From: an uncultured bacterium
GTDB lineage: Bacteria > Verrucomicrobiota > Kiritimatiellia > RFP12 > UBA1067
Direction: 5' to 3'
NCBI GenBank assembly: GCA_902761275.1
Contig: CACWJS010000016.1
Span: forward strand, 1,581 to 65,580
DNA length: 64,000 bases
Part shown: piece after piece, positions 1,242 to 53,450 of the stretch
How the letters are laid out: the number at the start of each line of letters is the position of its first letter
Numbering within the stretch: the stretch's first letter is position 1
Translations under genes and position numbers: made by a program
The notes under the pieces: generated by a model
The model's database searches: none
What the model was told of the DNA's origin: nothing
What the model saw: only the letters and a program-made list of their open reading frames with translations

Positions 1242-1313
1242 CAACTTTTCGCCTTTCAACTTTTTAACTTTTCAACTTTTCAACCTTTCAACTTTTCAAC
1301 TTTTCAACCTTTT
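1242..1313. repeat. octamer tandem array, CAAC(T/C)TTT orientation on + strand
   Basis: Direct reading: caacttttcgcctttcaactttttaacttttcaacttttcaacctttcaacttttcaacttttcaacc. Lies between trpA start and trpB; the last trpB codons and its stop fall inside the array. Confidence 0.95.
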
Positions 1314-2477
1314 ATATGCGAGAATGTTTTCAAGGTCCTTGTCGCCGCGCCCCGAAAGGCACACGAGAAGGATCGTATCCTTGGAAAGCGACGGCGCGCG
1401 CTTTATCGCCTCTGCGAGCGCATGGCTCGACTCGAGCGCGGGGATAATGCCCTCGTAGCGGCACAAGTCGTCGAACGCGGCTATCGCCTCGTCGTCCGTA
1501 ATCGACGAATATTCGGCACGACCCGTGTCGTGGAGATGGCAGTGCTCAGGGCCAACGCCTGGGTAGTCAAGTCCGGCAGATACGGAATACGTGTCGATCA
1601 CGTTGCCATCTGCCGTCTGGAGAAGCATCGTCTTGGCGCCGTGGAGAACGCCAAGACGTCCGCCGTTGATCGACGCAGCATGCTCGCCAGTCGCGATCCC
1701 CTTGCCAGCCGCCTCGACGCCGACGAGCTTTACGTCAGCGTCATCCATAAACCCGGCAAAGAGCCCGATGGCATTGGAACCGCCGCCGACGCACGCAATC
1801 GCCTGGTCGGGAAGCCGACCGAACTTCGCGAGGCACTGGCGACGTGCCTCCTTGCCGATGACGGATTGGAAGTCCTTTACCATCTCCGGATACGGATAGG
1901 GGCCTGCCGCCGTTCCGATCACGTAGAAAGTGTCGTCGCAATTCGTGACCCAGTCGCGTAGAGCTTCATTCATCGCGTCCTTCAAGGTCGCGCTGCCCTC
2001 CTCTATCGAATGGACGGTCGCACCGAGCATCTTCATGCGCTCGACATTTGGCGCCTGGCGTTTAACGTCGATTGCGCCCATATAGACTTCGCAGGGCATC
2101 CCGAGGAGCGCTGCGACTGTCGCTGTCGCGACGCCGTGCATTCCAGCGCCCGTCTCTGCGATCAAGCGCTTCTTGCCCATGCGCTTAGCTAAGAGCGCCT
2201 GGCCAATTGTGTTGTTGACCTTATGGGCGCCAGTGTGATTTAGGTCCTCGCGCTTCAGGACTATCGTCGCGCCGCCAAGCTTCGCGGAGAGGCGATTGCA
2301 GACGGTGATCGGCGACTCGCGCCCGACATAGTCCTTGAGGAGAGCCGCGAATTCGCGCTGGAACTCTGGGTCTTTCTTCGCTTCGAGATAGGCCGCCGCA
2401 AGTTCGTTAAGTGGTCCCATCAGCGTTTCGGCGACGTACTGTCCGCCGTATGGTCCGTAATGTTTTGTCGTGTTCAT
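1296..2477 (-). CDS. trpB: tryptophan synthase beta chain
   Basis: ORF 1296..2579. Strong TrpB sequence ([26 protein letters not shown]). Start set to ATG 2477 (MNTTKHYG) because upstream codons are repeat read-through. C-terminal KRLKS* is encoded by the array. Confidence 0.93.
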
Positions 2478-2478
2478 G

Positions 2479-2556
2479 ATGAAAAAGTTGAAAAGTTGAA
2501 AAGTTGAAAGGTTGAAAGGTTGAAAAGTTGAAAGGTTGAAAAGTTGAAGGGTTGAG
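2479..2556. repeat. octamer tandem array, TTGAAA(A/G)G orientation on + strand
   Basis: Direct reading: gaaaaagttgaaaagttgaaaagttgaaaggttgaaaggttgaaaagttgaaaggttgaaaagttgaagggttgag. Inverted relative to array 1242..1313. Confidence 0.95.
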
Positions 2557-2559
2557 ATA

Positions 2560-3237
2560 CTATAGGGTTGCTGACTCAAGAAGGCTCCGCAGCGCCCCTT
2601 CAGGATCTTTTGACTTCATGAGAGCAGTTCCTATAAGGAACGCGTTTGCGCCCGCAGCACGAAGACGCGCAATGTCCGCGCTTGTCTTTATGCCGCTCTC
2701 CGCGACCTTGACGATGCCGTCGGGAATCGCCTTGAGAAGCCGCTCGGATATAGAGACATCCACAGTGAAGTTGGAAAGGTCGCGGCAGTTGACGCCGATA
2801 ATGTCAGCGCCAACTGCAACAGCCCTCTTTATCTCCTCCTCGCTGTGCGTCTCGACAAGCGCATCAAGCCCGAGACCGCGCGCCTCGGCAAGAAGCTCTG
2901 AAAGCTTCTCGTCGTCGAGGTAGCGGACAATTAGAAGCGCCGCGCTCGCGCCTGCTGCCTTCACCTCGTGAAGTCGCTCCTTCTCCGAGATGAAGTCTTT
3001 CGCAAGAAGCGGAATCTTCGCGCCAGACGCGGCGACGCGCCGCAAGTCCTCGACGCTGCCCTTGAATCGCGCGGCGTCGCAGAGGACCGACATCGCAGCC
3101 GCCCCTCCCTGCTCGTATATTTTCGCCTTTGCGACCGGATCGGCCGCGACGTCGATATCGCCAAGCGACGGCGATGCGCGCTTGAATTCGGCGATAATAT
3201 TTACGCCTTCCCTACTCAGTGCATCTTTGAAGTGCAT
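2560..3237 (-). CDS. trpC: indole-3-glycerol phosphate synthase (short N-terminus)
   Basis: ORF 2560..3291. IGPS motif [16 protein letters not shown] 3237 (MHFKDAL) preferred; it overlaps the trpGD 3' end by 22 nt. Alternative start at 3291. Confidence 0.8.
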
Positions 3238-4775
3238 TTCACGAACTCCTGTAGCTTTTCCGACGCACGCCCCGAGTCGATTGACTCGCAAGCAAGCTTG
3301 TAACCTTCTTCCATCGTCGCCGCCTTGCTTGCTGCGACGATTGCCGCCGCCGCGTTGACAAGAACGGCATCCCGCCTGACGCCGCCAATTTCGCCGGAGA
3401 GAATCCCGCGAAGGACTGCGGCGTTCTCCGCGGCATCTCCACCGGCAAGCCCCGCCAAGTCGCGCTCTTGCTTTGGAAGCACCGAATCGGCGCTAAAGAG
3501 CCCCGTCGATATCTTGCCGCCCTTTAGCTCCGAGAGAATCGTGAATCCAGTCGGCGCGATTTCGTCCATGCCCTCGGTTCCAGAGAACACAAGCGCATGG
3601 ACGCTGCCAAGTTCCTTAAGCGCCTCAGCAACCGTCGGCACGAGCTTCGGGTCGTAGACGCCAATCGCCTGGCGCGTCACCCCTGCCGGGTTGGTGATGG
3701 GTCCAAGCAGATTGAAGAGCGTCTTGAAACCGAGCTGTCTGCGCACGTTCGCCGCGAAGCGCATGCCCGGGTGGTAGCGCTGGGCGAAGAGAAACGCCAT
3801 CCCCGTCTCGTCGAAGCACCTGCGGACGCCGTCCGGCTTGAGCGTCAAGTCGACGCCAAGTTCCCTAAGAACGTCAGCGGCACCGCACTTTGAAGTAGCG
3901 GCGACATTGCCGTGCTTGGCGATCTTCACGCCCGCCCCCGCGGCGACGAACGCGGCGGTAGTGGAGATGTTTATCGTATGCCGCCCGTCTCCGCCGGTTC
4001 CGACGAGATCGACGGCATCGTCGCAGCCGAGATCGACACGGCCCATCGCGTCGCGCATTGCCCGCGCAGCGCCCACGAGACGCGCCGTGGAAACGGGACG
4101 CTCGCGGCTGTCGGTGAGCAGCGCGAAGAGCTCGCGCTCCGAGTAGTCGCCGCGGAGGATGCCGCGGAATTCGTGGTAGGCGACGGTCTCCGCGGACGAT
4201 TCGCGCCGCGCCTCGATGCCGAAGAAGTTGCGGAGCTGGCCGATTCCCTCGGGAGTGCCAATCGACTCGGGATGGTACTGCACCGACTCTATCGGCATCG
4301 TCTTGTGGTGAAGCGCCATTATCTCGCCGTCGTCTGTCTCGGCGGAAATCTCGAAGCAATCGGGGAGAGTTGCGCGATCCACTGCGAGAGAATGATAGCG
4401 CATCGCCTCGAAACCCTGAGGAAGCCCCTCGAAGATGCCCTTCCCGTCGTGGCGAATGCGGCTCGTCTTGCCGTGCATAAGCGACTTCGCGTGGACAATG
4501 CGCCCGCCGAACGCCTGTGCAATCGTCTGGTGACCGAGGCAGACGCCGAGAATCGGGATCTTCCCCGCAAACGCCTTAACCGCCGCGAGCGAGATTCCGG
4601 CAGAGTCGGGATTGCCTGGACCGGGGGATATGACGAGAGAGTCTGGCTTCAGCGCCGCGATTCCGTCGACGTCGATCTTGTCGTTCCTGAACACCTTGAT
4701 GTCGATGCCAAGTCCTGCTATCGCCTGGACAAGGTTGTAGGTGAACGAATCGTAGTTGTCTATGAGGACTGTCAT
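3216..4775 (-). CDS. trpGD: fused anthranilate synthase glutamine amidotransferase (TrpG) / anthranilate phosphoribosyltransferase (TrpD)
   Basis: 519-aa ORF. N-terminal half is GATase-like (MTVLIDNYDSFTYNLVQ, GVCLGHQ). C-terminal half is TrpD-like (VDLVGTGGDG, KIAKHGN). Confidence 0.9.
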   Translation of the reverse strand: MTVLIDNYDSFTYNLVQAIAGLGIDIKVFRNDKIDVDGIAALKPDSLVISPGPGNPDSAGISLAAVKAFAGKIPILGVCLGHQTIAQAFGGRIVHAKSLMHGKTSRIRHDGKGIFEGLPQGFEAMRYHSLAVDRATLPDCFEISAETDDGEIMALHHKTMPIESVQYHPESIGTPEGIGQLRNFFGIEARRESSAETVAYHEFRGILRGDYSERELFALLTDSRERPVSTARLVGAARAMRDAMGRVDLGCDDAVDLVGTGGDGRHTINISTTAAFVAAGAGVKIAKHGNVAATSKCGAADVLRELGVDLTLKPDGVRRCFDETGMAFLFAQRYHPGMRFAANVRRQLGFKTLFNLLGPITNPAGVTRQAIGVYDPKLVPTVAEALKELGSVHALVFSGTEGMDEIAPTGFTILSELKGGKISTGLFSADSVLPKQERDLAGLAGGDAAENAAVLRGILSGEIGGVRRDAVLVNAAAAIVAASKAATMEEGYKLACESIDSGRASEKLQEFVKCTSKMH

Positions 4776-6172
4776 ACAAGCTCCTTTGCGAACTCCGCCG
4801 CCTGGAAGACGGCCTTCGACTTGTTTATCGTCTCCTGGTACTCCTTCGCGGGATCGGAGTCCGCCACGATTCCCGCGCCGGCGCGCATCGTGAGAACGCC
4901 GTCCTCGAGAACCATCGTGCGGATCACTATCGCGAAGTCCATGTCGCCGGTGTAGCTGAAGTACCCCGCCGCTCCGCCGTATACACCGCGCGGAGACTTC
5001 TCGTACTCGGCGAGAAGCTCCATCGCGCGGATCTTCGGTGCGCCGGTGAGCGTGCCTGCAGGGAACGCCGCCTTGAAAAGCCCTTGTGCGTCGGCCTTCT
5101 CTGGATCAAGCTCGCCGTAGACATTTGAGACGATGTGCATCACGTGCGAATAGCGCTCGATGTGCGCGAGGTCGCGCACCGCGACAGTGCCCGTCTTCGC
5201 GACGCGGCCGAGGTCGTTACGCGCGAGATCGACGAGCATCATGTGCTCGGCGCGTTCCTTGGGGTCAGCAAGAAGTTCCGCCTCAAGTGCACGGTCCATC
5301 TCGGGCGTCGCGCCACGCGGACGTGTGCCGGCGATCGGGGCGATTGAGCCAATCCCCTTTTCAAGGCGCACGAGCTCCTCAGGCGAAGAGCCGATCAACG
5401 TCTTCGAGCCGACGCGGAGGAAGAAGTTGTAGGGCGACGGGTTCACGAGTCGCAAGGCGCGATAGAGTGCGAGCGGCGGGATATCCGTCTTTGCTGTGAA
5501 CTTCTGCGACGGAACGATCTGGATCACCTCGCCCGCACGAATCGCCTCTTTGCAACGACCGACGATTGCGCAGAACTCGTCTTCTGTCATCTCTGGCACA
5601 AACTCTGAAAGCGACGGCTCGCGCGATGCAGCGGCGGGTGTGTGCCCTTCGACGTAGTGCGCGATGGACTCAGCGGAAAGGAGGCGTTTGCGCAGTTCCT
5701 CGATCTCGCGCATCGTCCTCTCGTAGGCGTCGGGTGCGTCGTTCGCCGCGACCTTTGCAACTATCGCTGTGTCGCGAACGGAGTCGAACACGACGAACGA
5801 GTCTACGGTCATGAATGCCTCAGGCGGCGTTCCATCCTCGTGGCGGCGTGGAACGCGCGGCTCGAAGTCCGACACGGACTCGTAGGCAAAGTATCCGACG
5901 CGACCACCCTGGAAAGACGACAACTCCGGCGCAGCGACAAAAGGCCTCTCGTCAGGCTTCTCGACCGGATCGAGGCCGAGATACGAGTAGCGTCCCTTGC
6001 GCTCGCCGTTGTAGACGCTTTCGAGAAGAAAGAGGTCTTTCGGCTCATCGATGATGCGCGTCAACACCGACACGGGTGTCTCGCGGTCTGCGATGAATTC
6101 ACGGAACACCGGCGTGCGTTTCCCGCCCGCGGTCCTCCTTTCGAATTCTTCTTTTGTCAGGTTCTTGAGCAT
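4772..6172 (-). CDS. trpE: anthranilate synthase component I
   Basis: 466-aa ORF with chorismate-binding C-terminus (GTLTGAPKIRAMELL, RGVYGGAAGYFS). ATGA overlap with trpGD. AAGGAGA SD upstream. Confidence 0.92.
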   Translation of the reverse strand: MLKNLTKEEFERRTAGGKRTPVFREFIADRETPVSVLTRIIDEPKDLFLLESVYNGERKGRYSYLGLDPVEKPDERPFVAAPELSSFQGGRVGYFAYESVSDFEPRVPRRHEDGTPPEAFMTVDSFVVFDSVRDTAIVAKVAANDAPDAYERTMREIEELRKRLLSAESIAHYVEGHTPAAASREPSLSEFVPEMTEDEFCAIVGRCKEAIRAGEVIQIVPSQKFTAKTDIPPLALYRALRLVNPSPYNFFLRVGSKTLIGSSPEELVRLEKGIGSIAPIAGTRPRGATPEMDRALEAELLADPKERAEHMMLVDLARNDLGRVAKTGTVAVRDLAHIERYSHVMHIVSNVYGELDPEKADAQGLFKAAFPAGTLTGAPKIRAMELLAEYEKSPRGVYGGAAGYFSYTGDMDFAIVIRTMVLEDGVLTMRAGAGIVADSDPAKEYQETINKSKAVFQAAEFAKELV

Positions 6173-6202
6173 TTGAATTTCTCCTTGATGAATTTAGTTA
6201 TG

Positions 6203-6244
6203 AAATAAAAGAAAGCGGCCTTACTTACAAAGAAGCAAGGCCGC
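6203..6244 (-). terminator. intrinsic terminator (attenuator) in the trp leader
   Basis: Minus-strand RNA reads GCGGCCUUGCUU-CUUUGU-AAGUAAGGCCGC: a 12-bp stem with one G-U pair and a 6-nt loop. It is followed by UUUCUUUUAUUU and ends 30 nt upstream of the trpE ATG. Confidence 0.8.
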
Positions 6245-6273
6245 CTTCAGGGGGGATAGAACAAAATCCCTGA

Positions 6274-6333
6274 TCACCACGCCTTGCGGACGCAGCGCCA
6301 CCACCAAAAGTTGCTGGAAAGAATCTTGTTCAT
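6274..6333 (-). CDS. trpL: trp operon leader peptide, 19 aa, MNKILSSNFWWWRCVRKAW
   Basis: Own translation: atg aac aag att ctt tcc agc aac ttt tgg tgg tgg cgc tgc gtc cgc aag gcg tgg tga. Three consecutive Trp codons (6306..6298) plus a terminal Trp. Sits between promoter and terminator. Confidence 0.75.
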   Translation of the reverse strand: MNKILSSNFWWWRCVRKAW

Positions 6334-6342
6334 GTGCCATGT

Positions 6343-6351
6343 ATTATACCA
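6343..6351 (-). promoter_or_regulatory. extended -10 box TGGTATAAT (trp promoter)
   Basis: + strand attatacca is the reverse complement of TGGTATAAT. trpL ATG lies 9 nt downstream. Confidence 0.65.
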
Positions 6352-6381
6352 CTACCGTTTCGCCCGGTTCGTATCCATTGA

Positions 6382-8395: not shown

Positions 8396-8397
8396 CT

Positions 8398-9153
<756 letters not shown>

Positions 9154-9180
9154 TTTAATTATTACTCCTGTTTTAAATTC

Positions 9181-9248
9181 CAAACTTAAACCTTAAACCC
9201 TCAACTTTTCAACCTTTCAACCTTTCAACTTTTCAACTTTAAACTTCC
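9181..9248. repeat. octamer array (CAAC(T/C)TTT plus TAAACC variants)
   Basis: caaacttaaaccttaaaccctcaacttttcaacctttcaacctttcaacttttcaactttaaactt. The last ~8-10 comEB codons (KFKVEKLKG) and its TGA stop are encoded by the array. Confidence 0.9.
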
Positions 9249-9699
9249 TATGCTTCACCCCAGATGCCTTGAACATCTCCTTCACCTTGTCAATAAAGGC
9301 GTAGTCGCCACCGTAGACGACCTCCTTAATGCCGGAGTTGATTATAAGCTTCGCGCAGGTGAGGCAAGGGGAAATCGTGATGTAGATCGTGCCGCCAGCG
9401 ATGGAGTTGCCGTAGTAGGCGGCCTGGCAGATCGCGTTCTGCTCGGCGTGGGTGCAAAGGCACTCTTCGAGGTGCGTACCACTCTTCGTCGTCCCGGCGC
9501 ACCTTGGACAGCCGCCTGCAAAGCAGTTCTTGACGCCGCGCGGAGTGCCGTTGTAGCCGGTGGAAAGAATGTGGTTGTCCTTCATGATGACGGCACCAAC
9601 CGAACGGCGCAGGCAATTGCTGCGCTTGGAGACGACTTCCGCGATCTCCATAAAGTACTCGTCCCAGCTCGGACGCGGATCTTTTTTCTTTGCCGCCAT
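9217..9699 (-). CDS. comEB: dCMP deaminase (ComEB family)
   Basis: C-terminal part of ORF 9217..10599 from ATG 9699 (MAAKKKDPRPSWDEYFMEIA). Zinc motifs HAEQNAI and PCLTCAKLI. Confidence 0.85.
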   Translation of the reverse strand: MAAKKKDPRPSWDEYFMEIAEVVSKRSNCLRRSVGAVIMKDNHILSTGYNGTPRGVKNCFAGGCPRCAGTTKSGTHLEECLCTHAEQNAICQAAYYGNSIAGGTIYITISPCLTCAKLIINSGIKEVVYGGDYAFIDKVKEMFKASGVKHRKFKVEKLKG

Positions 9700-9704
9700 C
9701 GTAT

Positions 9705-9794
9705 TGGCGGAGGGGGCGGGATTCGAACCCGCGGTGGAGTTGCCCCCACACAACCTTTCCAAGGTTGCACCATCGACCACTCGGACACCCCTCC
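9705..9794 (-). tRNA. tRNA-Ser (anticodon GGA), CCA encoded
   Basis: Reverse complement GGAGGGGTGTCCGAGTGG...CAACC-TTGGAAA-GGTTG...GCGGGTTCGAATCCCGCCCCCTCCGCCA folds as a class II cloverleaf with a long variable arm. Confidence 0.85.
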
Positions 9795-9894
9795 AGTCGT
9801 TGTTGCGTCCGTCCGCAATGCTTGGCGTGCCCACCGCAGCTCCGAGGAGCGGTGCGGGCTTGCCCGCCGTAGCTCCGCACGGAGCGGAGGCGGG

Positions 9895-9977
9895 TGCCAG
9901 GAGCGGGACTCGAACCCGCACATACTCACGTATAGCAGATTTTGAGTCTGCCGCGGCTGCCATTACGCCACCCTGGC
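9895..9977 (-). tRNA. tRNA-Leu (anticodon CAA), CCA not encoded
   Basis: Reverse complement GCCAGGGTGGCGTAATGGCAGC...GCAGA-CTCAAAA-TCTGC...GCGGGTTCGAGTCCCGCTCCTGGCA has a class II variable arm. Followed by CCC, not CCA. Confidence 0.85.
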
Positions 9978-9988
9978 CTTGCCCAGTC

Positions 9989-10062
9989 TGGAGCGGGCGA
10001 AGGGAATCGAACCCTCGTAGCCAGCTTGGAAGGCTGGAGCTCTGCCATTGAGCTACGCCCGC
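9989..10062 (-). tRNA. tRNA-Gly (anticodon TCC), CCA encoded
   Basis: Reverse complement GCGGGCGTAGCTCAATGGCAGAGCTCCAGC-CTTCCAA-GCTGG...AGGGTTCGATTCCCTTCGCCCGCTCCA. Confidence 0.88.
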
Positions 10063-10082
10063 TTTGCAAACGAACGGCGCAA

Positions 10083-10091
10083 AGTATATCA
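10083..10091 (-). promoter_or_regulatory. extended -10 box TGATATACT (tRNA-Gly/Leu/Ser-comEB unit)
   Basis: + strand agtatatca. Lies 20 nt upstream of the tRNA-Gly 5' end. Same 9-mer as the tRNA-Glu promoter. Confidence 0.6.
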
Positions 10092-10097
10092 TTTTTT

Positions 10098-10106
10098 TGG
10101 TATAAT
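10098..10106 (+). promoter_or_regulatory. extended -10 box TGGTATAAT (tilS)
   Basis: Exact TGGTATAAT 8 nt before the GTG at 10115. Back-to-back with the tRNA promoter. Confidence 0.6.
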
Positions 10107-10114
10107 GCGCAAGG

Positions 10115-10762
10115 GTGAAAATAGACAGATCCATACTTCCTCCAGGAAAAATCGGACTCGCCGTCAGTGGCGGTTCCGATTCCGTTGCCCTCGCATTTCT
10201 CCTCACGAAAGGCGGCAAGAAGAAAAACGCCGCGAAACGCTTCGTCGTCCTCCATGTCGACCACGGGCTGAGGAAGGAATCGAAGGAGGAATACAGGTTC
10301 GTGCGTTCGCTCGCAAAACGCCTCGGCATCCCCTTCAAGGGAATCCACGCCAAGGTCGTCAAGAGGCGCGGCGAATCGCTTGAGATGGCCGCGCGGCGCG
10401 TGCGGCTCGCGTTCTTCTCAAAGTGCATGAAGTCGCTTAAGCTCGATGCCGTCGCGACAGGCCACCACATGGACGATGTCGCGGAGACGTTCCTCATGAA
10501 GCTGCGCCGAGCGTCGCTCTCGGGCATCCGCGCAACAAGCGAAGTCGCCGGAATCAAGTTCGTGCGCCCGCTTCTCGGCTGCCGCGACGACGAGCTCAAG
10601 GACTACCTTCGCAAGTTTGGCGAAGAATGGCGCGAGGACGCGTCGAACGACGACGTCTCGATAGAGCGCAACAAGGTGCGCCACGAAGTGATCCCCTTTA
10701 TGGAAAAGGTGCTCGACGCAAACCTCGTCGAGCACCTCTACCGCATTTCACAGCGGCTCTAA
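10115..10762 (+). CDS. tilS: tRNA(Ile)-lysidine synthetase, PP-loop domain only (215 aa)
   Basis: PP-loop SGGSDS about 18 residues from the start; HVDHGLR and ATGHHMDD motifs. GTG start, probably leaderless. Confidence 0.75.
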   Translation: MKIDRSILPPGKIGLAVSGGSDSVALAFLLTKGGKKKNAAKRFVVLHVDHGLRKESKEEYRFVRSLAKRLGIPFKGIHAKVVKRRGESLEMAARRVRLAFFSKCMKSLKLDAVATGHHMDDVAETFLMKLRRASLSGIRATSEVAGIKFVRPLLGCRDDELKDYLRKFGEEWREDASNDDVSIERNKVRHEVIPFMEKVLDANLVEHLYRISQRL

Positions 10763-10781
10763 TCCCGTTCCCCGTTCCCCA

Positions 10782-12527: not shown

Positions 12528-12554
12528 TGTTGTCCTTTCTTTCGTTTGAATATT

Positions 12555-13150: not shown

Positions 13151-13154
<4 letters not shown>
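12555..13154 (-). CDS. ruvA: Holliday junction branch migration protein RuvA
   Basis: MIAYIRGVL...GGVGYELLIP N-terminus and HhH region (VSGVGPKIAL, IKGVGKKTAEKI). ATGA-type overlap with valS stop. Confidence 0.9.
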
Positions 13155-15889
<2,735 letters not shown>

Positions 15890-22089: not shown

Positions 22090-22121
22090 GAGCGGACTGA
22101 AGTCCGCCGCTCCAATATGGT

Positions 22122-22183
22122 CAACTTCAACCTTTCAACCTTCAACCTTTCAACTTTTCAACTTTTCAACTTTTCAACTTTAA
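22122..22183. repeat. octamer array, CAAC(T/C)TT(T) orientation
   Basis: caacttcaacctttcaaccttcaacctttcaacttttcaacttttcaacttttcaacttt, immediately upstream of the MFS start. Confidence 0.9.
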
Positions 22184-25571: not shown

Positions 25572-25572
25572 A

Positions 25573-25626
25573 CCTAATCACTATCTCCTGCCTCCTAATT
25601 ACTGACTCCTGACCCCTAACCCCTAT
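25573..25626. repeat. GTCAGG-family repeat ending in an SD (reverse orientation on + strand)
   Basis: Minus strand reads ggggttaggggtcaggagtcagtaattaggaggcaggagatagtgattaggtATG (dnaJ). Confidence 0.85.
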
Positions 25627-26273: not shown

Positions 26274-26333
26274 TCAACTCTAAACTTTAAACTTCAAACT
26301 TTAAACTTTGAACTTCAAACTTTAAACCCTAAT
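26274..26333. repeat. octamer array variant AAACTT(T/C)A
   Basis: ctcaactctaaactttaaacttcaaactttaaactttgaacttcaaactttaaaccctaa, between argG stop and grpE start. Confidence 0.85.
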
Positions 26334-27936: not shown

Positions 27937-28206
27937 ATCTATCTCCTAATTCCTGACTCCAATTAAAATCTCCCCACCTCTCTCCAACTCCCTCTGCGCC
28001 TCTGCGTCTCTCGGCACTCGCTCCGCTCGGCGTGTTCGCTTCCCCAAGGGTCGCGAACCCCCTCAAGGGGCGGTTACGCGCTTCCCCAAGGGTCGCGAAC
28101 CCCCTCAAGGGGCGGTTACGCGTTAAAAATTCTAATAAAAAATTATCAATTCCGCTCTCCAACTCCAACTCTAAACTCCAACTCCTAACCCCCGACCCCT
28201 GACTCC
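27937..28206. repeat. composite mosaic intergenic element (GTCAGG + GGAGTTGGAG arrays, AT-rich core, GC hairpin module), reverse orientation
   Basis: Reverse complement aligns module-by-module with 36261..36459 and 54256..54475: gttggagttggagagcggaattgata...tagaatttttaacgc; agagacgcagaggcgcagagg; ggagattttaattggagtcagg. Confidence 0.85.
28039..28122. repeat. perfect 42-bp tandem duplication
   Basis: cttccccaagggtcgcgaaccccctcaaggggcggttacgcg occurs twice (28039..28080 and 28081..28122) inside the composite element. Confidence 0.95.
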
Positions 28207-33867: not shown

Positions 33868-33965
33868 GGGTCAGGGGTCAGGGGTCAGGAGTCAGGAGTC
33901 AGGGGTTAGGGGTCAGTAGTTAGGAGTCAGGAGTTGGAGTCAGGAGTCAGTATAGGAGATAGAAG
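33867..33965. repeat. GTCAGG-family array ending in an SD, forward orientation
   Basis: ggggtcaggggtcaggggtcaggagtcaggagtcaggggttaggggtcagtagttaggagtcaggagttggagtcaggagtcagtataggagatagaagATG. Confidence 0.92.
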
Positions 33966-36260: not shown

Positions 36261-36459
36261 AGCAGGAGTTGGAGTTCAGAGTTGGAGTTGGAGAGTGGAA
36301 GGTTAGGGGCCAGGAGTCAGGGGTCAGGGGTTAGGGGTCAGGAGTCAGGAGTTGGAGTTGGAGTTCAGAGTTGGAGTTGGAGAGCGGAATTGATATCGTT
36401 TTTAGTAGAATTTTTAACGCAGAGACGCAGAGTCGCAGAGGTAGTTGGAGAGTGGATGG
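36261..36459. repeat. composite mosaic intergenic element, forward orientation
   Basis: ggagttggagttcagagttggagttggagagtgg...ggtcaggagtcagg...gttggagagcggaattgatatcgtttttagtagaatttttaacgcagagacgcagagtcgcagaggtagttggagagtgg. Confidence 0.9.
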
Positions 36460-40947: not shown

Positions 40948-40956
40948 ATTATACCA
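40948..40956 (-). promoter_or_regulatory. extended -10 box TGGTATAAT (envelope operon, leaderless)
   Basis: + strand attatacca. ATG 40939 lies 8 nt downstream. Confidence 0.55.
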
Positions 40957-40990
40957 CAAAAACCAGCATGGGCGGATTGGAAATATATTT

Positions 40991-47017: not shown

Positions 47018-47023
47018 GTCCGC

Positions 47024-47029
47024 ATTATA
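47024..47029 (-). promoter_or_regulatory. -10 box TATAAT (A2M, leaderless)
   Basis: + strand attata. ATG 47017 lies 6 nt downstream. TG is displaced by one position from the extended consensus. Confidence 0.45.
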
Positions 47030-47065
47030 GACAAAATTCCGCCGCTATGCAACGGCAAAAAACTG

Positions 47066-47920: not shown

Positions 47921-47924
47921 GGCA

Positions 47925-48794: not shown

Positions 48795-48797
48795 AAA

Positions 48798-48917
48798 AGA
48801 AAGTTGAAAAGTTGAAAGGTTGAAAAGTTGAAAGGTTAGTGGAAGTTAAGAGTTGAAAAGTTGAAAGGTTAGTGGAAGTTAAGAGTTGAAAAGTTGAAAG
48901 GTTAGTGGAAGAGTTGG
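48798..48917. repeat. octamer array (TTGAAA(A/G)G orientation) with 33-bp higher-order unit x2.8
   Basis: gttgaaaagttgaaaggttagtggaagttaaga at 48819..48851 and 48852..48884, with a partial third copy. Confidence 0.92.
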
Positions 48918-49334
48918 TCATGTTCGATGAGGATGTTTACATTCCTGCTTGACGTAGTCAATAGAATGTTCGGAATCGACAATAGACTTGATTAGATTGT
49001 ATACTGTCGCCGACACGAGCTTTGCAGCGCTATACAGCTCGTCGAACTCCTCCGCCGTTATATACCCAAGGTCACTTGCATGGTGAAGTAGAGAAGATAC
49101 CTCTGCCGCAGAACCTTTTGAAATCCAAAGGAATTTGACGAAGTCGCGATTCCCCCTGCGCTCAAAACCCTCAGCAATATTCGCGCAGACCGAGACTGCC
49201 GCACGGCGAATTTGGTCGCGAAAGCCGAAATCCCGTGCCATCTCACCGGTGGAAGAGATGCGATAGACAGCCAAGACAAGTTCCCGACCCTTTTGCCAGG
49301 CAACTATGTCCTCATATCGACTAAACGCAGCCAT
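48918..49334 (-). CDS. four-helix-bundle protein (23S rRNA intervening-sequence protein / Avd-like family)
   Basis: AWQKGRELVLAVYRIS...RDQIRRAAVSVCANIAEGFERRGNRDFVKFLWISKGSAAEV is the family signature. Visibly more AT-rich than its neighbours. Confidence 0.8.
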   Translation of the reverse strand: MAAFSRYEDIVAWQKGRELVLAVYRISSTGEMARDFGFRDQIRRAAVSVCANIAEGFERRGNRDFVKFLWISKGSAAEVSSLLHHASDLGYITAEEFDELYSAAKLVSATVYNLIKSIVDSEHSIDYVKQECKHPHRT

Positions 49335-49338
49335 CCCG

Positions 49339-49447
49339 CCCTTTCAACCTTTCAACCTTTCAACTCTTCAACTTTTCAACTCTTCAACTTTTCAACCTTT
49401 CAACTTTTCAACCTTTCAACCTTTCAACTTTTCAACCTTTCAACTTA
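49339..49447. repeat. octamer array, CAAC(T/C)(T/C)TT orientation
   Basis: ctttcaacctttcaacctttcaactcttcaacttttcaactcttcaacttttcaacctttcaac... Inverted relative to 48798..48917. Confidence 0.92.
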
Positions 49448-50926
49448 CATCAACACGTTGATGTAGTCGAGGTTCATGTCCTCGGTACCGGTCATGAAGC
49501 AGCCCTTCTCCTTCGCGAAGAGGATGTGCGCGAGGACGTCGGCCGTGATTCGCTCGCCAGGCGCGACGATCGGGATCCCCGGCGGATAGCTCATCACGAA
49601 CTCTCCAGCGACAAGTCCCGTAGACTCACGCATGGGAACGCGACGCTTCTTCGCGTAGAACGCCTCCTGCGGCGGCATCACGATTTCGGGGTCGATGTAT
49701 TCGTGGTCAAAAAGTCCAATGGGGCTCTTCTCTCGCAGACGCTTGATCTCCTCGAGCGCGGAAATAAGGCGCTCGATGTCCATCATGCGGTCGCCGCACG
49801 AGATGATCGCAAGGAGGTTACCGATGTCACCGAACTCAATCTGTATGCCGTAGTCGTCGCGCAAGTAGTCGTAGACCTCAATGCCGGCAAGACCGATGTC
49901 GCGAGTATGCACGGAAAGCTTTGTGCGGTCAAACGCAAAGACCGTGTCGCCGTCGACGAGTTCAGGGCCAAATGCATAGTAGCCGCCGAGGGCGTTTATC
50001 TCCTCGCGCGCATAGTCGGCGAAATCCATCGTCTTCTGGTACATCGCACGACCCTTGAAAAAAAGGTTCCTGCGGGCGATGTCGAGCGACGAGAGAAGAA
50101 GATAAGAAGCGGAAGTCGACTGCGTGAGCGTGATGACCTGGCGCACGTAGTCTGGATTGACAGGCCTACGCGTCAGCAGGATGGAGCTTTGCGTAAGCGA
50201 GCCGCCTGTCTTGTGGATGGACGCTGCCGCCATGTCGCACCCGGCTGCCATCGCGGAGATGGGCAGGTCCTCGTGGAAGTAGAAATGCGTACCGTGCGCC
50301 TCGTCTGCGAGGACGAGCATGCCCGCCTTGTGCGCGATTTCGACGATGCGCTTAAGGTCAGAGCAGATGCCGTAGTAAGTCGGGTTGTTGACGAGAATCG
50401 CCTTTGCCGACGGATGGGCGGCTATCGCCTTCTCGACGTCGGTGACGCTCATGCCGAGCGGAATGCCGAGACGGCGGTTGATGCCGGGGTTGACGTAAAT
50501 CGGCACCGCGCCGCAGACGACGAGTGCGTTGATGGCGCTCCTATGTACGTTGCGCGGCAGGATTATCTCGTCGCCGACGGAGCAGGTCGACATTATCATC
50601 GCCTGCACCGCCGAAGTGGTTCCGTTCACCATGAAGAACGCATCGTCCGCGCCGAAGGCCTCGGCCGCGAGCTGCTGCGCTTCCTTTATGACGGAGACTG
50701 GATGTCCGAGGTTGTCGAGCGGCTTCATCGAGTTGACGTCCATGGCGAGAGCCCGCTCGCCAAGGTATTCCGTCAACTCTGGGTTGCCTCGCCCGCTCTT
50801 GTGCGCGGGCACGTCGAAGTGCGCAAGCCGGTTTATGCGCTGGCGGTCGAGAGCATCCGCCAGCGGAGTTTGCCGCTGGCGGACTTTCAGTTCGTCTACC
50901 GCCCCCCCGGACGAGTTTCTTGCCAT
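49445..50926 (-). CDS. speA: PLP-dependent Orn/Lys/Arg decarboxylase (SpeA-type arginine decarboxylase likely)
   Basis: 493-aa ORF. PLP-lysine motif SIHKTGGSLTQSS. Operon context with speE and speB. Confidence 0.75.
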   Translation of the reverse strand: MARNSSGGAVDELKVRQRQTPLADALDRQRINRLAHFDVPAHKSGRGNPELTEYLGERALAMDVNSMKPLDNLGHPVSVIKEAQQLAAEAFGADDAFFMVNGTTSAVQAMIMSTCSVGDEIILPRNVHRSAINALVVCGAVPIYVNPGINRRLGIPLGMSVTDVEKAIAAHPSAKAILVNNPTYYGICSDLKRIVEIAHKAGMLVLADEAHGTHFYFHEDLPISAMAAGCDMAAASIHKTGGSLTQSSILLTRRPVNPDYVRQVITLTQSTSASYLLLSSLDIARRNLFFKGRAMYQKTMDFADYAREEINALGGYYAFGPELVDGDTVFAFDRTKLSVHTRDIGLAGIEVYDYLRDDYGIQIEFGDIGNLLAIISCGDRMMDIERLISALEEIKRLREKSPIGLFDHEYIDPEIVMPPQEAFYAKKRRVPMRESTGLVAGEFVMSYPPGIPIVAPGERITADVLAHILFAKEKGCFMTGTEDMNLDYINVLM

Positions 50927-50930
50927 CTAC

Positions 50931-51482
50931 TTACTTGAAGTAGCGGTTGTAGAGACCCTGGAACGCCTTGCCGTGGCGCGCCTCGTCCTTCGCCATCTCG
51001 TGGACGGTGTCGTGGATCGCGTCGTAGCCGAGCTCCTTCGCGCGCTTGGCGATGGCGAGCTTGCCGGCAGTCGCGCCGCACTCGGCCTCCATGCGGCGAC
51101 GGAGGTTCTCCTTGGTGGAGTCCGTCACGATGTCGATCGTCTTGCCGAGGAGCTCGGCGAACTTAGCGGCGTGCTCGGCCTCCTCGAACGCGATGCGCTT
51201 GTAGGCCTCGGCGACCTCGGGATAGCCCTCGCGGTCGGCCTGGCGCGACATGGCGAGATACATGCCGACTTCGCAGCACTCGCCGTTGAAATGGTCCTTG
51301 AGACCCTGCGTGACCTCGGCATCATCGACGATGCCGTCACCGACATGATGCTCTGCGACGAACTCAAGGCCGCCGCCCTGCTTCAGGAACTTCGCTCCCG
51401 GAACGCCGCACTGGGGGCACTTCTCCGGAGGATTCTCGCCTTCGTACACATACCCGCAAACGGGGCAAACCCACTTAGCCAT
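50931..51482 (-). CDS. reverse rubrerythrin (N-terminal rubredoxin-like + diiron ferritin-like domain)
   Basis: CPVCGY...CPQCG at the N-terminus, then ExxH diiron motifs ([18 protein letters not shown]). Confidence 0.85.
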
Positions 51483-51518
51483 GTCTTTGTCTCCTTTTAG
51501 TTGTTGTTGATGTTGTGA

Positions 51519-51548
51519 ACTTTACCACATTTCAGCCGTCCGTGTCAA
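51519..51548 (-). promoter_or_regulatory. sigma70-type promoter TTGACA-18-TGGTAAAGT (rubrerythrin-polyamine operon)
   Basis: Minus strand reads ggaTTGACAcggacggctgaaatgTGGTAAAGTtcac. ATG 51482 lies 36 nt downstream with AAAGGAGA SD. Confidence 0.6.
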
Positions 51549-51556
51549 TCCTGCCG

Positions 51557-53287
51557 TCAGGCGTCGGGCCAAAGCTCGTGCGCCATCTCCCTCAGTTTGT
51601 ACTTCTGTATCTTCTGCGACGCCGTCATCGGGAAGATATCAAGGAAATGCACATACTTCGGGATCTTGAACCACGAGATCTTGTCCTTGCAGAACGCCTG
51701 CACATCCTCGGGCTTGAGCTCCACGCCGTCAGCAGGGATCACAAACGCCGCCGGCTGCTCGCCATACTTCTTCGAGGGGCAGCCAACGACCGCGACATCT
51801 TTGACGCCGGGCATCGTGCCGAGGAAGTCCTCGACTTCCTTGGGGCTTATGTTCTCGCCGCCGCGGATGATGAGGTCTTTGAGGCGTCCGGTGATGTAAT
51901 AGTAGCCGTCCTTGTCCATGCGGCCAATGTCGCCGGAATGGAGCCACCCGTTCTTGTCGATGCACTTCGCCGTCTGCTCGGGCATCTTGTAGTAGCCCTT
52001 CATGTTGTTGAAGCCACGGCAGCAGATCTCGCCGTCGGTATCGAGCGGAGCGATTTCGCCAGTCTCGGGGTCGATGATCGCAACCTCGACGCCGGGAAGC
52101 GCCTGACCGATCGTCTGGCACTTGCGCTCAATCGAGGGTTCGAAATAGCGCGTCATCGTCATCACGGGACCCGACTCGGTGAGTCCGTACGGGTTCGTGA
52201 TCTCCTTCATGAACATGCGGTCCTGCGCCTGCTGCATGCGATGGACAGGGCACGCCGAACCCGACATGATGCCGGTCCTGAGCGACGAGAAGTTGAACTC
52301 CTTGAAGCGCGGATGGTCAAGCATCGCGATATACATCGTAGGAACGCCGTATGTCGCAGTGCACTTCTCGCGCTCAATCGACTTCATAACGAGAAGCGGA
52401 TCGAACTTCTCGAGGAACACCATCGTGGAGCCGTGGTTGACGCAGCTCATCACGCCGAGGACACAGCCGAAGCAGTGGAAGAGCGGCACTGGGATGCAAA
52501 CGCGGTCGCGCGAGGAGAGATTCTGGCACGCGCCGATCCAGAAGCCGTCGTTCGCGATGTTGCGGTGGGTGAGCTGCACGCCCTTCGGGAAGCCAGTCGT
52601 GCCGCTCGTGTACTGCATGTTCACGACGTCGTTCACGTCGCACTCCGCCTGACGCGCGATATATTCCTCCTGCGTCACCTCGCACGCGAGCGACTTCACC
52701 TCGTTGAGCGAGTACATGCCGCGGTGCTTCTTCGGCCCCAAGTAGAACATCCGCTTGAGGTGCGGGTACTTCGCGCTCTTGAGGGCGCCACGCGGGCACT
52801 CCTTGAGCTCGGGGATAAGCGAGTTGATGACTTCGATGTAGTCGCAATCGCGGTAGCCGTCGATCACGAACAGGTTCTCGGCGTCCGACTGCTTGAGCGC
52901 GAAGTCGATTTCCTGGCTCTTGTAGTTGATGTTGAGCGGCAGGAGTATCGCGCCGATCTTCGCCGTCGCGAACATGAGGACGACCCAGTGGGGGACGTTC
53001 GTCGCCCAGAGCGCGACCTTTTCTCCGCGCTTCACGCCGAGCGCCATAAGCCCCTTCGCGACGTAGTCGACTTCCTCGGAGAACTCGAACCACGTGAGGC
53101 GGTAGTCGCGGTCAGCATAGACCACCGCATCGTTCTCGCCGCAGCGCGCGACCGTCTGGTCGAGAAGCTGGCCGAGGGTGTATTCGCGCGTGATAGGCAG
53201 GTTGTGCCACGGAACGCCCGTCGAGACGGACTGAGTGAACGGCGCCTTGCGCGGCGCTGTTCCAAATGGATCTGTCAGCTTGAACAT
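51557..53287 (-). CDS. AMP-forming acyl-CoA synthetase / fatty-acid--CoA ligase
   Basis: AMP-binding motifs MQYTSGTTGFPKGV, GYGLTE-like NPYGLTESGP, SGDIGRMDKDGYYYITGRLKD, and the C-terminal lysine region. Confidence 0.88.
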   Translation of the reverse strand: MFKLTDPFGTAPRKAPFTQSVSTGVPWHNLPITREYTLGQLLDQTVARCGENDAVVYADRDYRLTWFEFSEEVDYVAKGLMALGVKRGEKVALWATNVPHWVVLMFATAKIGAILLPLNINYKSQEIDFALKQSDAENLFVIDGYRDCDYIEVINSLIPELKECPRGALKSAKYPHLKRMFYLGPKKHRGMYSLNEVKSLACEVTQEEYIARQAECDVNDVVNMQYTSGTTGFPKGVQLTHRNIANDGFWIGACQNLSSRDRVCIPVPLFHCFGCVLGVMSCVNHGSTMVFLEKFDPLLVMKSIEREKCTATYGVPTMYIAMLDHPRFKEFNFSSLRTGIMSGSACPVHRMQQAQDRMFMKEITNPYGLTESGPVMTMTRYFEPSIERKCQTIGQALPGVEVAIIDPETGEIAPLDTDGEICCRGFNNMKGYYKMPEQTAKCIDKNGWLHSGDIGRMDKDGYYYITGRLKDLIIRGGENISPKEVEDFLGTMPGVKDVAVVGCPSKKYGEQPAAFVIPADGVELKPEDVQAFCKDKISWFKIPKYVHFLDIFPMTASQKIQKYKLREMAHELWPDA

Positions 53288-53288
53288 A

Positions 53289-53450
53289 AGAGTTGAAAAG
53301 TTAAAAAGTTGAAAAGTTGAATAGTTGAATAGTTGAATAGTTGAAGAGTTGAAGAGTTAAAAAGTTGAATAGTTGGACAGTTGGTCGATCGAGGGCTGAA
53401 GTCGCAGCTTTAACCTTTCAACCTTTCAACTTTTCAACCTTTCAACTTTT
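53289..53450. repeat. inverted pair of octamer arrays (TTGAA(A/T)AG block, 23-bp spacer, CAACCTTT block)
   Basis: gagttgaaaagttaaaaagttgaaaagttgaatagttgaatag...gttggtc / gatcgagggctgaagtcgcagc / tttaacctttcaacctttcaacttttcaacctttcaactttt. Confidence 0.9.

Follow-up and report, generated by a model that had tools for sequence, protein, structure and literature searches.

Octamer tandem arrays in operons of an uncultured Kiritimatiellia bacterium and their association with IVSP (PF05635) genes

The octamer TTGAAARG is found in tandem at 10 places in the window, the whole 64-kb stretch of DNA of an uncultured Kiritimatiellia bacterium that was analysed here, which raises the question of what these arrays are and how they come to lie within ordinary operons. 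Intergenic arrays of 7-9-nt units, often in inverted pairs, have already been published without explanation for Xanthomonas and Nostoc (PMC4692102), Geobacter (PMC2700814) and the IVS of Coxiella (PMC4990558). Neither this octamer family nor a link between arrays and IVSP genes was found in the literature. The statement of the initial annotation that the repeat belongs to no described family holds for the octamer, and not for its kind.

Octamer arrays of the window

Period-8 arrays were located with Tandem Repeats Finder at 1242-1312, 2483-2548, 9201-9240, 13995-14032, 14045-14082, 22126-22181, 48800-48903, 49340-49444, 53291-53383 and 53408-53451. The double unit TTGAAARGTTGAAARG, with up to two mismatches, matches 57 times against 0.06 expected from shuffles, and 0 of 100 shuffles reach 57. 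All positions given in the initial annotation were recovered in this way, with the amendments that 26274-26333 has a period of 7 and that 13995-14083 and 53289-53450 are opposed pairs. The arrays outside the IVSP element are the following:

1242..1313, minus strand: single array of about 9 units between trpB and trpA, TTGAAARG on the minus (mRNA) strand
2483..2556, plus strand: single array of about 9 units between the trpC stop (2560) and the trpB ATG (2477), CYTTTCAA on the mRNA (minus) strand
9182..9246, minus strand: single array between the dCMP-deaminase gene and tpiA, TTGAAARG on the mRNA strand
13991..14083, minus strand: compact hairpin element in frame within valS, opposed arms 14082-14045 and 14032-13995 (mRNA strand), 29 aa encoded
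22121..22181, minus strand: single array between two plus-strand genes, reading CAACTTTT on the plus (mRNA) strand
26276..26327, minus strand: related period-7 array between two minus-strand genes, AACTTTA on the plus strand and TAAAGTT on the mRNA strand
53288..53453, minus strand: ORF-less hairpin element occupying the entire spacer from the stop of the gene at 53454-54131 to the ATG of the gene at 51557-53287

The array at 26276-26327 represents a related family other than the octamer, because its period is 7 (AACTTTA). Arrays of CTCCTGA/GAGTCAG also occur in the window. The sequences at 13995-14082 and 53291-53451 each consist of two opposed arrays and are thus hairpins; the RNA fold of 53288-53453 reaches -52.8 kcal/mol (z -7.4), and that of the valS element is weak (z -1.3).

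Read as TTGAAARG, an array contains TGA in all three frames, and read as CYTTTCAA it is open in all of them, as the initial annotation had calculated. The translations also bear out its claim that genes borrow their ends from arrays: trpB ends in ...AYKRLKS-TGA, of which the last 5 codons and the TGA are supplied by 1242-1313, and the dCMP-deaminase gene ends in ...KFKVEKLKG-TGA within 9182-9246, which provides its stop. The 'STFQLFNL' ORF extension, likewise attributed to an array, is explained by 22121-22181 as its source, open in all frames. Such arrays give rise to false N-terminal extensions and fusions of ORFs, and they also break short-read assemblies.

The trp operon has one promoter (TGGTATAAT), a leader peptide (MNKILSSNFWWWRCVRKAW) and an attenuator terminator at 6248-6211, and no second terminator-like site was found from trpE to trpA; therefore, its arrays must be transcribed, as had been proposed. 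An origin as assembly artefacts, one of the refutations named at the outset, does not apply, because the same sites recur in many independent assemblies with lengths differing by exact unit multiples. Tandem units, many copies, a mainly intergenic position and length polymorphism, the features of short tandemly repeated or intergenic 6-9-nt SSR sequences, were all observed, with a period of 8 where 7 is usual.

An IVSP gene between inverted arms

One pair of arms in the window, at 48795-49444, encloses a gene:

49335..49444, minus strand: 5' arm of the IVSP element, 13 TTGAARRG units, mRNA strand
48918..49334, minus strand: IVSP gene of 138 aa, PF05635 (23S rRNA intervening sequence protein) and TIGR02436 (four helix bundle protein)
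48795..48917, plus strand: 3' arm of the same element, reading CYTTTCAA on the mRNA strand, where 48800-48911 shows a super-unit of 33 nt

PF05635, for which the names IVSP, S23p and 'four helix bundle protein' are in use, counts among the large families of bacterial proteins that have no known function. The gene matches Pfam PF05635 (E 7e-33) and TIGR02436 (E 5.8e-32), has 2GSC and 2RLD as PDB relatives, and gave no match in PADLOC and PHROGs. The decarboxylase gene ends in a TAA, one base beyond which the 5' arm starts, and GAAAGG, the final unit of this arm, lies 5 nt upstream of the IVSP ATG; the 3' arm stops 9 nt upstream of the speE ATG. The arms pair into a stem of ~95 bp around the ORF, and the element folds with -260.7 kcal/mol (z -10.3). 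The inverted-pair architecture, the enclosed PF05635 gene and the strain-to-strain turnover of whole elements had escaped the initial annotation.

The complete layout is an inverted pair, (TTGAAARG)n ... (CYTTTCAA)n; two further pairs in the window are compact hairpins, one of them in frame within valS. Among 198 arrays from 120 sources (the window and 119 loci, with genes called by a home-made caller), close inverted pairs ran T-type then C-type in 22 cases and in the reverse order in 1. Most arrays are single arms, incapable of folding alone, and these face both ways relative to the adjoining genes with no orientation bias (71 T-type vs 53 C-type after stops, 55 C-type vs 46 T-type before starts). 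The earlier description of the arrays as stop-loaded in one orientation only is correct for the sequence and fails for the placement, since orientations beside genes are mixed.

IVSP genes in diverse bacteria lie between inverted 7-9-nt tandem arrays of conserved polarity. Only three IVSP genes were present in ~0.9 Mb (in the window, the Cloacimonas MAG L011 and the Bacteroidales MAG L111), and all adjoin arrays; in each of the three the gene stands between two arms, which in L111 are both in direct orientation. In a sample of 80 diverse metagenomic loci, in which arrays of 5-12-nt period were scored within 300 nt, arrays stood beside the IVSP gene in 71 loci (mostly 7-9-nt units) and on both sides in 39, with reverse-complementary units in 25 and direct units in 5 of these 39. 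Tandem-repeat density was 14% near the IVSP gene vs 1.2% in the flanks; an array was present at 44/50 IVSP genes with full flanks vs 14/52 control genes of the same loci. RGT was found in 40 of the 48 units upstream of IVSP (shuffles: mean 15.9, maximum 26) and ACY in 40 of the 56 downstream. The unit sequence varies from locus to locus and the architecture is kept. No IVSP locus among 40 lay within an rRNA gene. Many of the IVSP contigs are only 0.5-1.5 kb long. These data tie the PF05635 family to short tandem arrays: most sampled genes lie outside rRNA between reverse-complementary arms of conserved polarity, and ORF-less copies occupy operon junctions and even essential genes.

Turnover between strains and in-frame copies

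At gene junctions, elements come and go in their entirety, and their arms lengthen or shorten by full repeat units. Between conspecific strains, array lengths differ by whole repeat units, and the same site can hold another short-repeat hairpin or nothing. Within the trp operon, identical junctions hold different repeat families in different strains. The site at 1242-1313 differs by one unit in copy number between strains and in others holds a different hairpin, GTAGAA-type or GC-rich; the trpC-trpB site has 6-9 units, or instead CACAGAGA/TCTCTGCG or GTGTAGAA/TTCTACAC hairpins; some strains have trpA and trpF overlapping by ATGA, and in other strains a hairpin of 85 nt stands between the two genes. 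Strain L134 has no array in the dCMP-deaminase/tpiA spacer, which is 27 nt long there; in other strains this spacer measures 51-81 nt and its units vary. The arrays can serve as hypervariable strain markers in rumen Verrucomicrobiota.

At the IVSP element, the 5' arm spacers in other assemblies measure 110, 94, 86, 54 and 38 nt, with differences that are multiples of 8, and the 3' arm spacers 90, 123 and 156 nt, in steps of 33. Strains with identical SpeE carry the cassette, a 10-nt empty spacer (TGA-10 nt-ATG), or another insert of 980 nt. In the one pair of filled and empty speE junctions examined closely, ~20 nt were replaced with no duplication, a picture that homologous-recombination allele exchange between strains would produce identically, and the speE Shine-Dalgarno GGGAG is gone from the filled allele. 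Neither a transposase or reverse transcriptase nor a duplication of the target site was detected for the elements.

Many arrays lie at gene boundaries, as the initial annotation held for all of them; the exceptions lie in frame within valS, within the gene of a PFL-like enzyme and within that of a B12/radical-SAM protein. The valS element stands in place of an ordinary 18-aa linker found in 95% identical strains. TTGA->TCGA changes abolish its in-frame stop, and the TCGA variant unit is homogenised across the arm; the empty allele has TCTTTCA at its right-hand junction.

Possible nature of the arrays

On balance, we favour the view that the octamer arrays are arms of small IVS-like selfish insertion elements living in ordinary operons. 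The complete element is best read as (TTGAAARG)n - loop - (CYTTTCAA)n with a PF05635 gene in the loop of one copy, and most copies are best read as ORF-less hairpins or single-arm derivatives. Insertion would swap out the end of the upstream gene, with its last codons and stop, and the spacer that leads to the following start codon. It may be tolerated because the 5' arm halts translation in every frame, whichever side the ribosome enters from, and because the stem would hold the stop and the next start codon adjacent. Arm length would change by replication slippage, supported by spacer lengths that lie apart by multiples of 8 or 33 nt. Once transcribed, the arms would pair into a long perfect double-stranded helix, which is likely to be cut by RNase III as in rRNA IVSs; the cut would separate the cistrons or remove the loop. 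The IVSP may act as the element's own nucleic-acid-binding factor. Several results weigh against this view: neither a mobility enzyme nor a target-site duplication was found, ~20 nt are replaced at the speE junction, the many single arms lack an orientation bias, the arms of L111 are direct, IVSP is not known to have any activity, and the spread of the octamer over several phyla is accounted for neither by phages, with viral contigs numbering only 5, nor by a demonstrated transfer. If the array-IVSP link is functional, the elements would be a new kind of mobile element, with a directly testable role for an IVSP/Avd-like protein.

The elements resemble the 23S rRNA IVSs of Leptospira and Coxiella in their terminal inverted repeats and long stem around a PF05635 ORF, in copy-number-variable tandem units beside the ORF (heptamers there), in ORF-less versions, in a sporadic strain distribution, and in their presumed status as selfish elements (PMC4990558). 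In the Coxiella IVS, an S23p ORF and terminal inverted repeats occur together with heptameric repeats that vary in copy number, and RNase III cleaves inside the stem (PMC4990558). Unlike these IVSs, the elements described here lie in mRNA operons or within protein genes and not in helix 25 or 45 of 23S rRNA, and their arms consist entirely of tandem 7-9-nt units; Rfam detected no rRNA in the window, where the elements lie between or within protein-coding genes. RNase III excision is known for the IVSs of Coxiella, Salmonella and Leptospira (PMC4990558), and for the present elements it is extrapolated from these.

As the initial annotation had judged, the arrays are none of REP, BIME, ERIC or CRISPR. 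Abundant extragenic hairpin-forming repeats between operon genes, one protein-coding copy flanked by inverted repeats with many non-autonomous copies, and different families at the same junction in relatives recall REP/BIME/REPIN and RAYT systems. The REP unit is an imperfect palindrome of 20-40 nt with GTAG as its conserved head, and the present unit is a non-palindromic tandem 8-mer; the arm-flanked gene of the window encodes a PF05635 four-helix bundle, not known to be catalytic, in place of the Y1 transposase that partners REP. CRISPR requires 23-50-nt repeats with unique spacers, and these 8-mers run head to tail without spacers. MITEs combine terminal inverted repeats with a target-site duplication and derive from a transposase-encoding IS; here, inverted arms were observed, ~20 nt were replaced at the speE junction without duplication, and no parent IS was seen. 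Rickettsia palindromic elements (RPE) were reportedly described by Ogata and colleagues in 2000 as palindromic selfish repeats tolerated in frame within protein genes. They are 100-150-bp palindromes of unique sequence, restricted to Rickettsia and without an associated gene; octamer hairpins are similarly tolerated in frame as extra peptide segments and, unlike RPE, consist of tandem short units.

A broader proposal, that each PF05635 protein is the cognate partner of the 7-9-nt arms around its gene and that arm-gene-arm units form a multi-phylum class of autonomous selfish elements not recognised before, with ORF-less hairpins and single arms as non-autonomous members, is tentative and seems to us rather doubtful. 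If true, it would provide one mechanism for rRNA IVSs, cyanobacterial STRRs, Xanthomonas/Nostoc heptamer SSRs and Geobacter 'regulator sites', and would assign a function to PF05635, a very large family whose relatives include Avd, the accessory protein of DGRs. Cyanobacterial STRR sequences are a further case of intergenic 7-9-nt tandem arrays left without explanation. The proposal sets side by side the homopentameric rings of IVS proteins and arms of typically 4-6 units.

It is unlikely that the arrays are instead host-selected intercistronic modules, kept as cistron insulators that set relative expression or mRNA stability like the REP hairpins of E. coli. Such modules would offer all-frame stops and an SD-like GAAAGG on one strand, and on the other a G-poor, unstructured sequence that fits the RNase E RN|WUU pattern. 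Arrays lying exactly between stop and start codons, hairpins that bridge the two, a last 5'-arm unit at Shine-Dalgarno distance from the IVSP ATG, and a polarity in which stops are followed by the stop-loaded arm and starts are preceded by the open one all accord with this explanation, and the same polarity was reported for Xanthomonas heptamers (PMC4692102). Against it, one and the same junction can hold an array, repeats of an unrelated family or no insert in strains whose neighbouring proteins are identical, single arrays show no orientation preference, in-frame copies within essential genes have their stops mutated away, and the insertion removed speE's own GGGAG.

The Xanthomonas (GGGAATC) and Nostoc (GGGGAYT) intergenic heptamer SSRs, interpreted as G-quadruplex formers, share tandem short units, an intergenic position in ~90% of cases, and a distance of 0-50 bp from ORF ends with occasional overlap of stops; 70-75 convergent inverted pairs occur per Xanthomonas genome, length differs between relatives, and after stops the G-rich strand lies on the coding strand (PMC4692102). 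The present octamer differs in its lack of G runs, its period of 8 and its host phyla, and no link to an IVSP gene has been reported in that literature (PMC4692102). Heptamer over-representation was put down there to polymerase slippage (PMC4692102), in line with the idea that the arrays are ordinary microsatellites born locally from chance proto-repeats in AT-rich spacers, with no element or mobility. Whole-unit length variation, the homogenised TCGA unit of the valS arm and the TCTTTCA at the junction of the empty valS allele are consistent with it. This idea is nevertheless quite improbable, given that one octamer recurs at 10 sites of a 64-kb stretch and is present in six or more phyla, that inverted pairs show a 22:1 polarity, that a complete arm-gene-arm cassette is matched by a 10-nt empty site, and that the units on one side of IVSP genes are the reverse complement of those on the other. 

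Arrays acting at the DNA level, as binding sites for a nucleoid protein or global regulator or as banks of -35-like TTGAAA hexamers, are very improbable, since they lie within operons and within ORFs, and one regulator does not fit a unit sequence that differs by locus while the architecture is kept. The -35 role suggested in the initial annotation was not upheld: the promoters that can be recognised in the window belong to the extended -10 class (TGGTATAAT) and occupy other spacers, arrays face either way with respect to genes, and the sole promoter-like match that uses an array is weak and on the strand opposite the operon. Binding of IHF/HU type was proposed for similar paired repeats of Geobacter metallireducens as global-regulator sites (PMC2700814); no strain comparison or protein partner of these repeats is known. 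These (GTTGCTYN x4, TCTCCGTS x3, MTYCTGA x5) are likewise tandem 7-9-nt units on opposite strands at variable distance, of four to five units, intergenic including between operon genes (proBA, near trpB2) and in part intragenic (PMC2700814). The Geobacter heptamer MTYCTGA is also the unit of the CTCCTGA/GAGTCAG arrays of the window.

Arrays and hairpins in the window

The octamer TTGAAARG had been proposed, from the sequence, as a tandem repeat of gene boundaries, and the arrays are real. Their units read TTGAAARG (T-type) or CYTTTCAA (C-type), and Tandem Repeats Finder gives period-8 arrays at all the listed places except 26276-26327, which is a tandem array of period 7. When up to two mismatches are allowed, the double unit TTGAAARGTTGAAARG occurs 57 times in the window, against 0.06 expected from dinucleotide-preserving shuffles. 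The G+C content of the window is 59%, and that of the arrays 25-37%. An assembly artefact was excluded as the source of the arrays. The intervals 13995-14082 and 53291-53451, each described initially as one array, both consist of two opposed arrays, and the former lies inside valS rather than at a gene boundary. Rfam matched only tRNAs in the window, and literature searches for the exact octamer sequence returned nothing relevant.

Main repeat features of the window
13995-14082, both strands alike: hairpin, T-type then C-type
53291-53451, both strands alike: hairpin without ORF, T-type then C-type
48804-48911, T-type on the plus strand: arm on one side of the IVSP gene
49340-49443, C-type on the plus strand: arm on the other side of the IVSP gene
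48918-49334 (between the two arms), minus strand: IVSP gene, 138 aa (PF05635, TIGR02436)
25572-25622, 27980-28206, 33868-33965, 36261-36459 and 54267-54334: other short tandem-repeat families

The gene between the two arms matches PF05635, "23S rRNA intervening sequence protein" (IVSP; E 7e-33), and also TIGR02436, "four helix bundle protein". As RNA, the whole IVSP element is predicted to enclose the ORF in a stem of ~95 bp (-260.7 kcal/mol, z -10.3). A fold is also predicted for the ORF-less hairpin 53285-53456, which starts at the UGA of one gene and stops 5 nt short of the next AUG (-52.8 kcal/mol, z -7.4). The initial annotation had noted that the octamer is loaded with stop codons in one orientation and open in the other, and this logic is correct. 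Because a T-then-C palindrome is identical on both strands, the stop-loaded arm meets the incoming gene and the open arm meets the outgoing gene. The ends of trpB (AYKRLKS-TGA) and of the dCMP-deaminase gene (KFKVEKLKG-TGA) are indeed borrowed from two different arrays.

Arrays within the trp operon had also been held to be transcribed. The operon begins with a classic attenuator (6211-6350, minus strand) comprising its single promoter TGGTATAAT, the leader peptide MNKILSSNFWWWRCVRKAW with three Trp codons in succession, and a terminator at 6248-6211 with a 16-bp stem followed by a T run; no further terminator-like site was found ahead of trpA, and the internal arrays must therefore be transcribed. 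The motif TGGTATAAT(A) is repeated in spacers near 6345, 15950, 27600, 40960, 54250 and 58050 (plus strand: ATTATACCA), which suggests that this organism uses extended -10 promoters lacking a clear -35 hexamer.

PF05635 genes between repeat arms

Searches with the window IVSP (tblastn and jackhmmer) found just three copies in the window and the 119 loci listed, so the gene is far rarer than the arrays; none was found in the compared loci L130-L139. All three genes (in the window and in loci L011 and L111), the only ones among ~0.9 Mb, adjoin octamer arrays, and metagenome contigs were therefore scanned for IVSP relatives with an alignment of 31 diverse IVSPs as query. Relatives were present in 570 of the first 600 candidates, and the best 80 of the 570 were kept.

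PF05635 genes of many lineages are located between such repeat arms. An array with a period of 5-12 nt and at least three copies lies within 300 nt of the IVSP gene in 71 of the 80 best loci and on both sides in 39, with reverse-complementary units in 25 of these 39 and direct units in 5. Tandem-repeat density in the 80 loci is 14% near the gene versus 1.2% in the flanks. Arrays accompany 44 of 50 IVSP genes with full flanks, compared with 14 of 52 control genes from the same loci, and stand at both ends of 22/50 and 1/52, respectively. Periods of 7, 8 and 9 account for 69, 22 and 16 of the flanking arrays, and the median copy number is 4.7 (interquartile range 4.2-6.0). The unit sequence varies between loci and the architecture is constant: RGT occurs in 40 of 48 upstream units (shuffles: mean 15.9, maximum 26) and ACY in 40 of 56 downstream units, a polarity rule that the octamer obeys with AGTT/GGTT in its T-type arm and AACT/AACC in its C-type arm. 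ORF-less arrays and hairpins are also found in the IVSP loci, and of 71 such arrays and hairpins 16 have the unit of the local IVSP arms. Stop codons were rejected as a property of the class, since about half of the other IVSP-flanking units have none; the stop-loaded 5' arm is specific to the octamer unit.

The IVSP was described as functionally uncharacterised as of 2024 (PMC11270868). It had no match in PADLOC or PHROGs, and a defence or phage function was rejected on that account. Of the solved structures, 2GSC and 2RLD are the closest; both entries contain five chains, and 2GSC is a homopentameric toroid (PMC4990558). The correspondence of a pentameric ring with arms of ~4-6 units is no more than suggestive. 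Most IVSP homologues among the metagenome candidates (P0001-P0120) are known solely from contigs of 0.5-1.5 kb, which fits with flanking arrays breaking short-read assemblies.

Several published systems resemble these elements. [quoted passage not shown] None of 40 IVSP loci lies inside rRNA genes. In work on Xanthomonas and Nostoc, GGGAATC heptamer arrays of variable length are 89-93% intergenic and lie 0-50 bp from ORFs, with 70-75 convergent inverted pairs per genome; they were read as G-quadruplex formers (PMC4692102), a reading inapplicable to the octamer because its unit lacks runs of G. In Geobacter metallireducens, paired sites made of 3-5 tandem units of 7-9 nt were proposed to bind a regulator, and their MTYCTGA unit is the CTCCTGA/GAGTCAG heptamer of the window (PMC2700814). 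Intergenic tandem repeats in Planctomycetes are associated with structural variants (PMC9426551). These reports do not describe TTGAAARG, nor do they tie arrays to PF05635 genes outside rRNA (PMC4990558; PMC4692102; PMC2700814; PMC9426551). The octamer is a new member of a known, unexplained kind of bacterial repeat, and the association of arrays with the IVSP family is new and testable.

Variation among strains and copies inside genes

The same species was retrieved from many metagenomes by exact-protein look-up; the related contigs come mostly from metagenome assemblies, apparently of rumen samples, and a protein cluster at ≥90% identity gives the organism as a Verrucomicrobia bacterium. The arrays are hypervariable in whole units. 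The 5' arm spacer of the IVSP gene measures 110, 94, 86, 54 or 38 nt, all differences being multiples of 8, and the 3' arm spacer 90, 123 or 156 nt, in steps of a 33-nt super-unit.

At gene junctions, arrays also come and go in blocks the size of an element. Depending on the strain, trpC/trpB holds either 6-9 C-type units or one of two hairpins, CACAGAGA...TCTCTGCG and GTGTAGAA...TTCTACAC, and trpB/trpA holds either T-type units or a hairpin, which is GTAGAA-type or G+C-rich. Some strains have an ATGA overlap of trpA and trpF, where others have an 85-nt repeat-armed hairpin between the two genes. The deaminase/tpiA array is absent in one strain (the TTG start of the listed tpiA ORF is not the true start). 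Next to identical SpeE, the decarboxylase/speE junction contains the IVSP cassette, a different 980-nt insert or just TGA-GGGAGCGCAA-ATG, and the different insert marks it as a hot spot for unrelated insertions. In the filled allele, degenerate arm units (GTGTTGATGTAAG) make up the last codons of the decarboxylase and its stop, the GGGAG Shine-Dalgarno sequence of speE is lost and no target-site duplication is visible. The 980-nt insert (L226, L230 and L232, at the equivalent of window 48795-49444) encodes ORFs of 203 and 60 aa without a Pfam match.

Sometimes the gain or loss is inside a gene. In the 912-aa valS ORF, the element stands between class-I tRNA synthetase domains and the anticodon-binding and ValRS C-terminal domains, and it is translated in frame as a 29-residue segment, in place of which strains with 95% identical ValRS have an ordinary G+C-rich 18-aa linker. 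A 904-aa form of ValRS carries the same insert and was rejected as a unit-number variant. Three units of the T-type arm read TCGA for TTGA though one alone threatened an in-frame stop, which points to unit homogenisation in place; predicted pairing of the arms is now poor (z -1.3). There are further in-frame copies: one is in a PFL-like glycyl-radical enzyme, whose Pfam domain match continues unbroken over the array, and in a second protein a copy separates the B12-binding domain from the radical-SAM domain. Gene calls in the compared loci came from a home-made caller, on which the in-frame status of a third candidate copy depends; this one, in L050, lies shortly before a glycoside hydrolase family 2 TIM-barrel domain (Pfam matched the downstream side only). 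Other apparent intragenic arrays, including those of L084, L060, L106 and L115, were set aside as N-terminal ORF extensions or ambiguous.

Distribution and origin of the arrays

At least 119 loci were obtained when 185,579 species genomes were searched for three exact units in a row. The matches listed include Verrucomicrobiota, Kiritimatiellae, Lentisphaerae, Planctomycetales, many Bacteroidota (two of them cultured isolates), Acidobacteriota, Chloroflexota, Gastranaerophilales, Cloacimonas and a few Firmicutes, and in each of several genomes array-bearing contigs are numerous. The three-unit pattern occurs in only 5 viral contigs, and phage carriage was rejected as the main vehicle. Among the 198 arrays with at least three units in the window and the 119 loci listed, arrays form polar inverted pairs: close pairs run T then C in 22 cases and in reverse order in 1. 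For single arrays in this set, the orientation with respect to genes has no clear bias (after stops, T 71 vs C 53; before starts, C 55 vs T 46).

In a Bacteroidales MAG (L111, 550-3450), each of several consecutive genes is preceded by a long C-type array, CTCACCC-ATG being the common junction. In this locus one gene has its C-terminal 50 nt, together with its array, duplicated to both sides of a neighbouring gene, and variant units CCTTTAAA give TAA stops in the orientation otherwise open. In other PVC genomes, the loops of octamer hairpins are further tandem repeats (L020 451-527; loops of L027, L080 and L019), namely CGGAAGG x11, CGAGCAGC-type 8-mers and TCTAGAAC-type 9-mers.

We propose that the arrays are arms of IVS-like selfish elements, including ORF-less and single-arm derivatives, whose length would be set by slippage. 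Polarity may be kept because translation from either side ends fast, and also because the stop and the next start codon adjoin at the stem base; the transcribed stems would be RNase III substrates. Neither a transposase nor a reverse transcriptase nor a target-site duplication was seen. A module selected by the host for insulation or processing would agree with the placement of the arrays, but it is unlikely given that strains swap an array for an unrelated family or nothing, that copies occur within genes and that single arms have mixed orientation. Purely local microsatellite birth, quite unlikely in our judgement, agrees with the unit-step variation but not with the repeated occurrence of a single octamer, with the polar pairs or with the difference between IVSP cassette and empty site. 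A promoter or regulator-site role finds no support here, and the suggested -35 function of TTGAAA was rejected after promoter comparison in the window.

On the minus strand at 9708-10062 there are three successive tRNA genes, two of them separated by a spacer of 72% G+C (9795-9894), and the listed 460-aa ORF 9217-10599 is spurious past ~9700. Among the other repeat families of the window are a heptamer (GGGTCAG/GAGTCAG), a hexamer (GGAGTT) and a further octamer (CGCAGAGG/CCTCTGCG); composite blocks of them often occupy entire spacers, and every G-rich strand has a GGAG/AGGAG-like core. Within one such block, 28037-28122 is a perfect 42-bp direct duplication (CGCTTCCCCAAGGGTCGCGAACCCCCTCAAGGGGCGGTTACG x2) with a small GC-rich hairpin in each copy.
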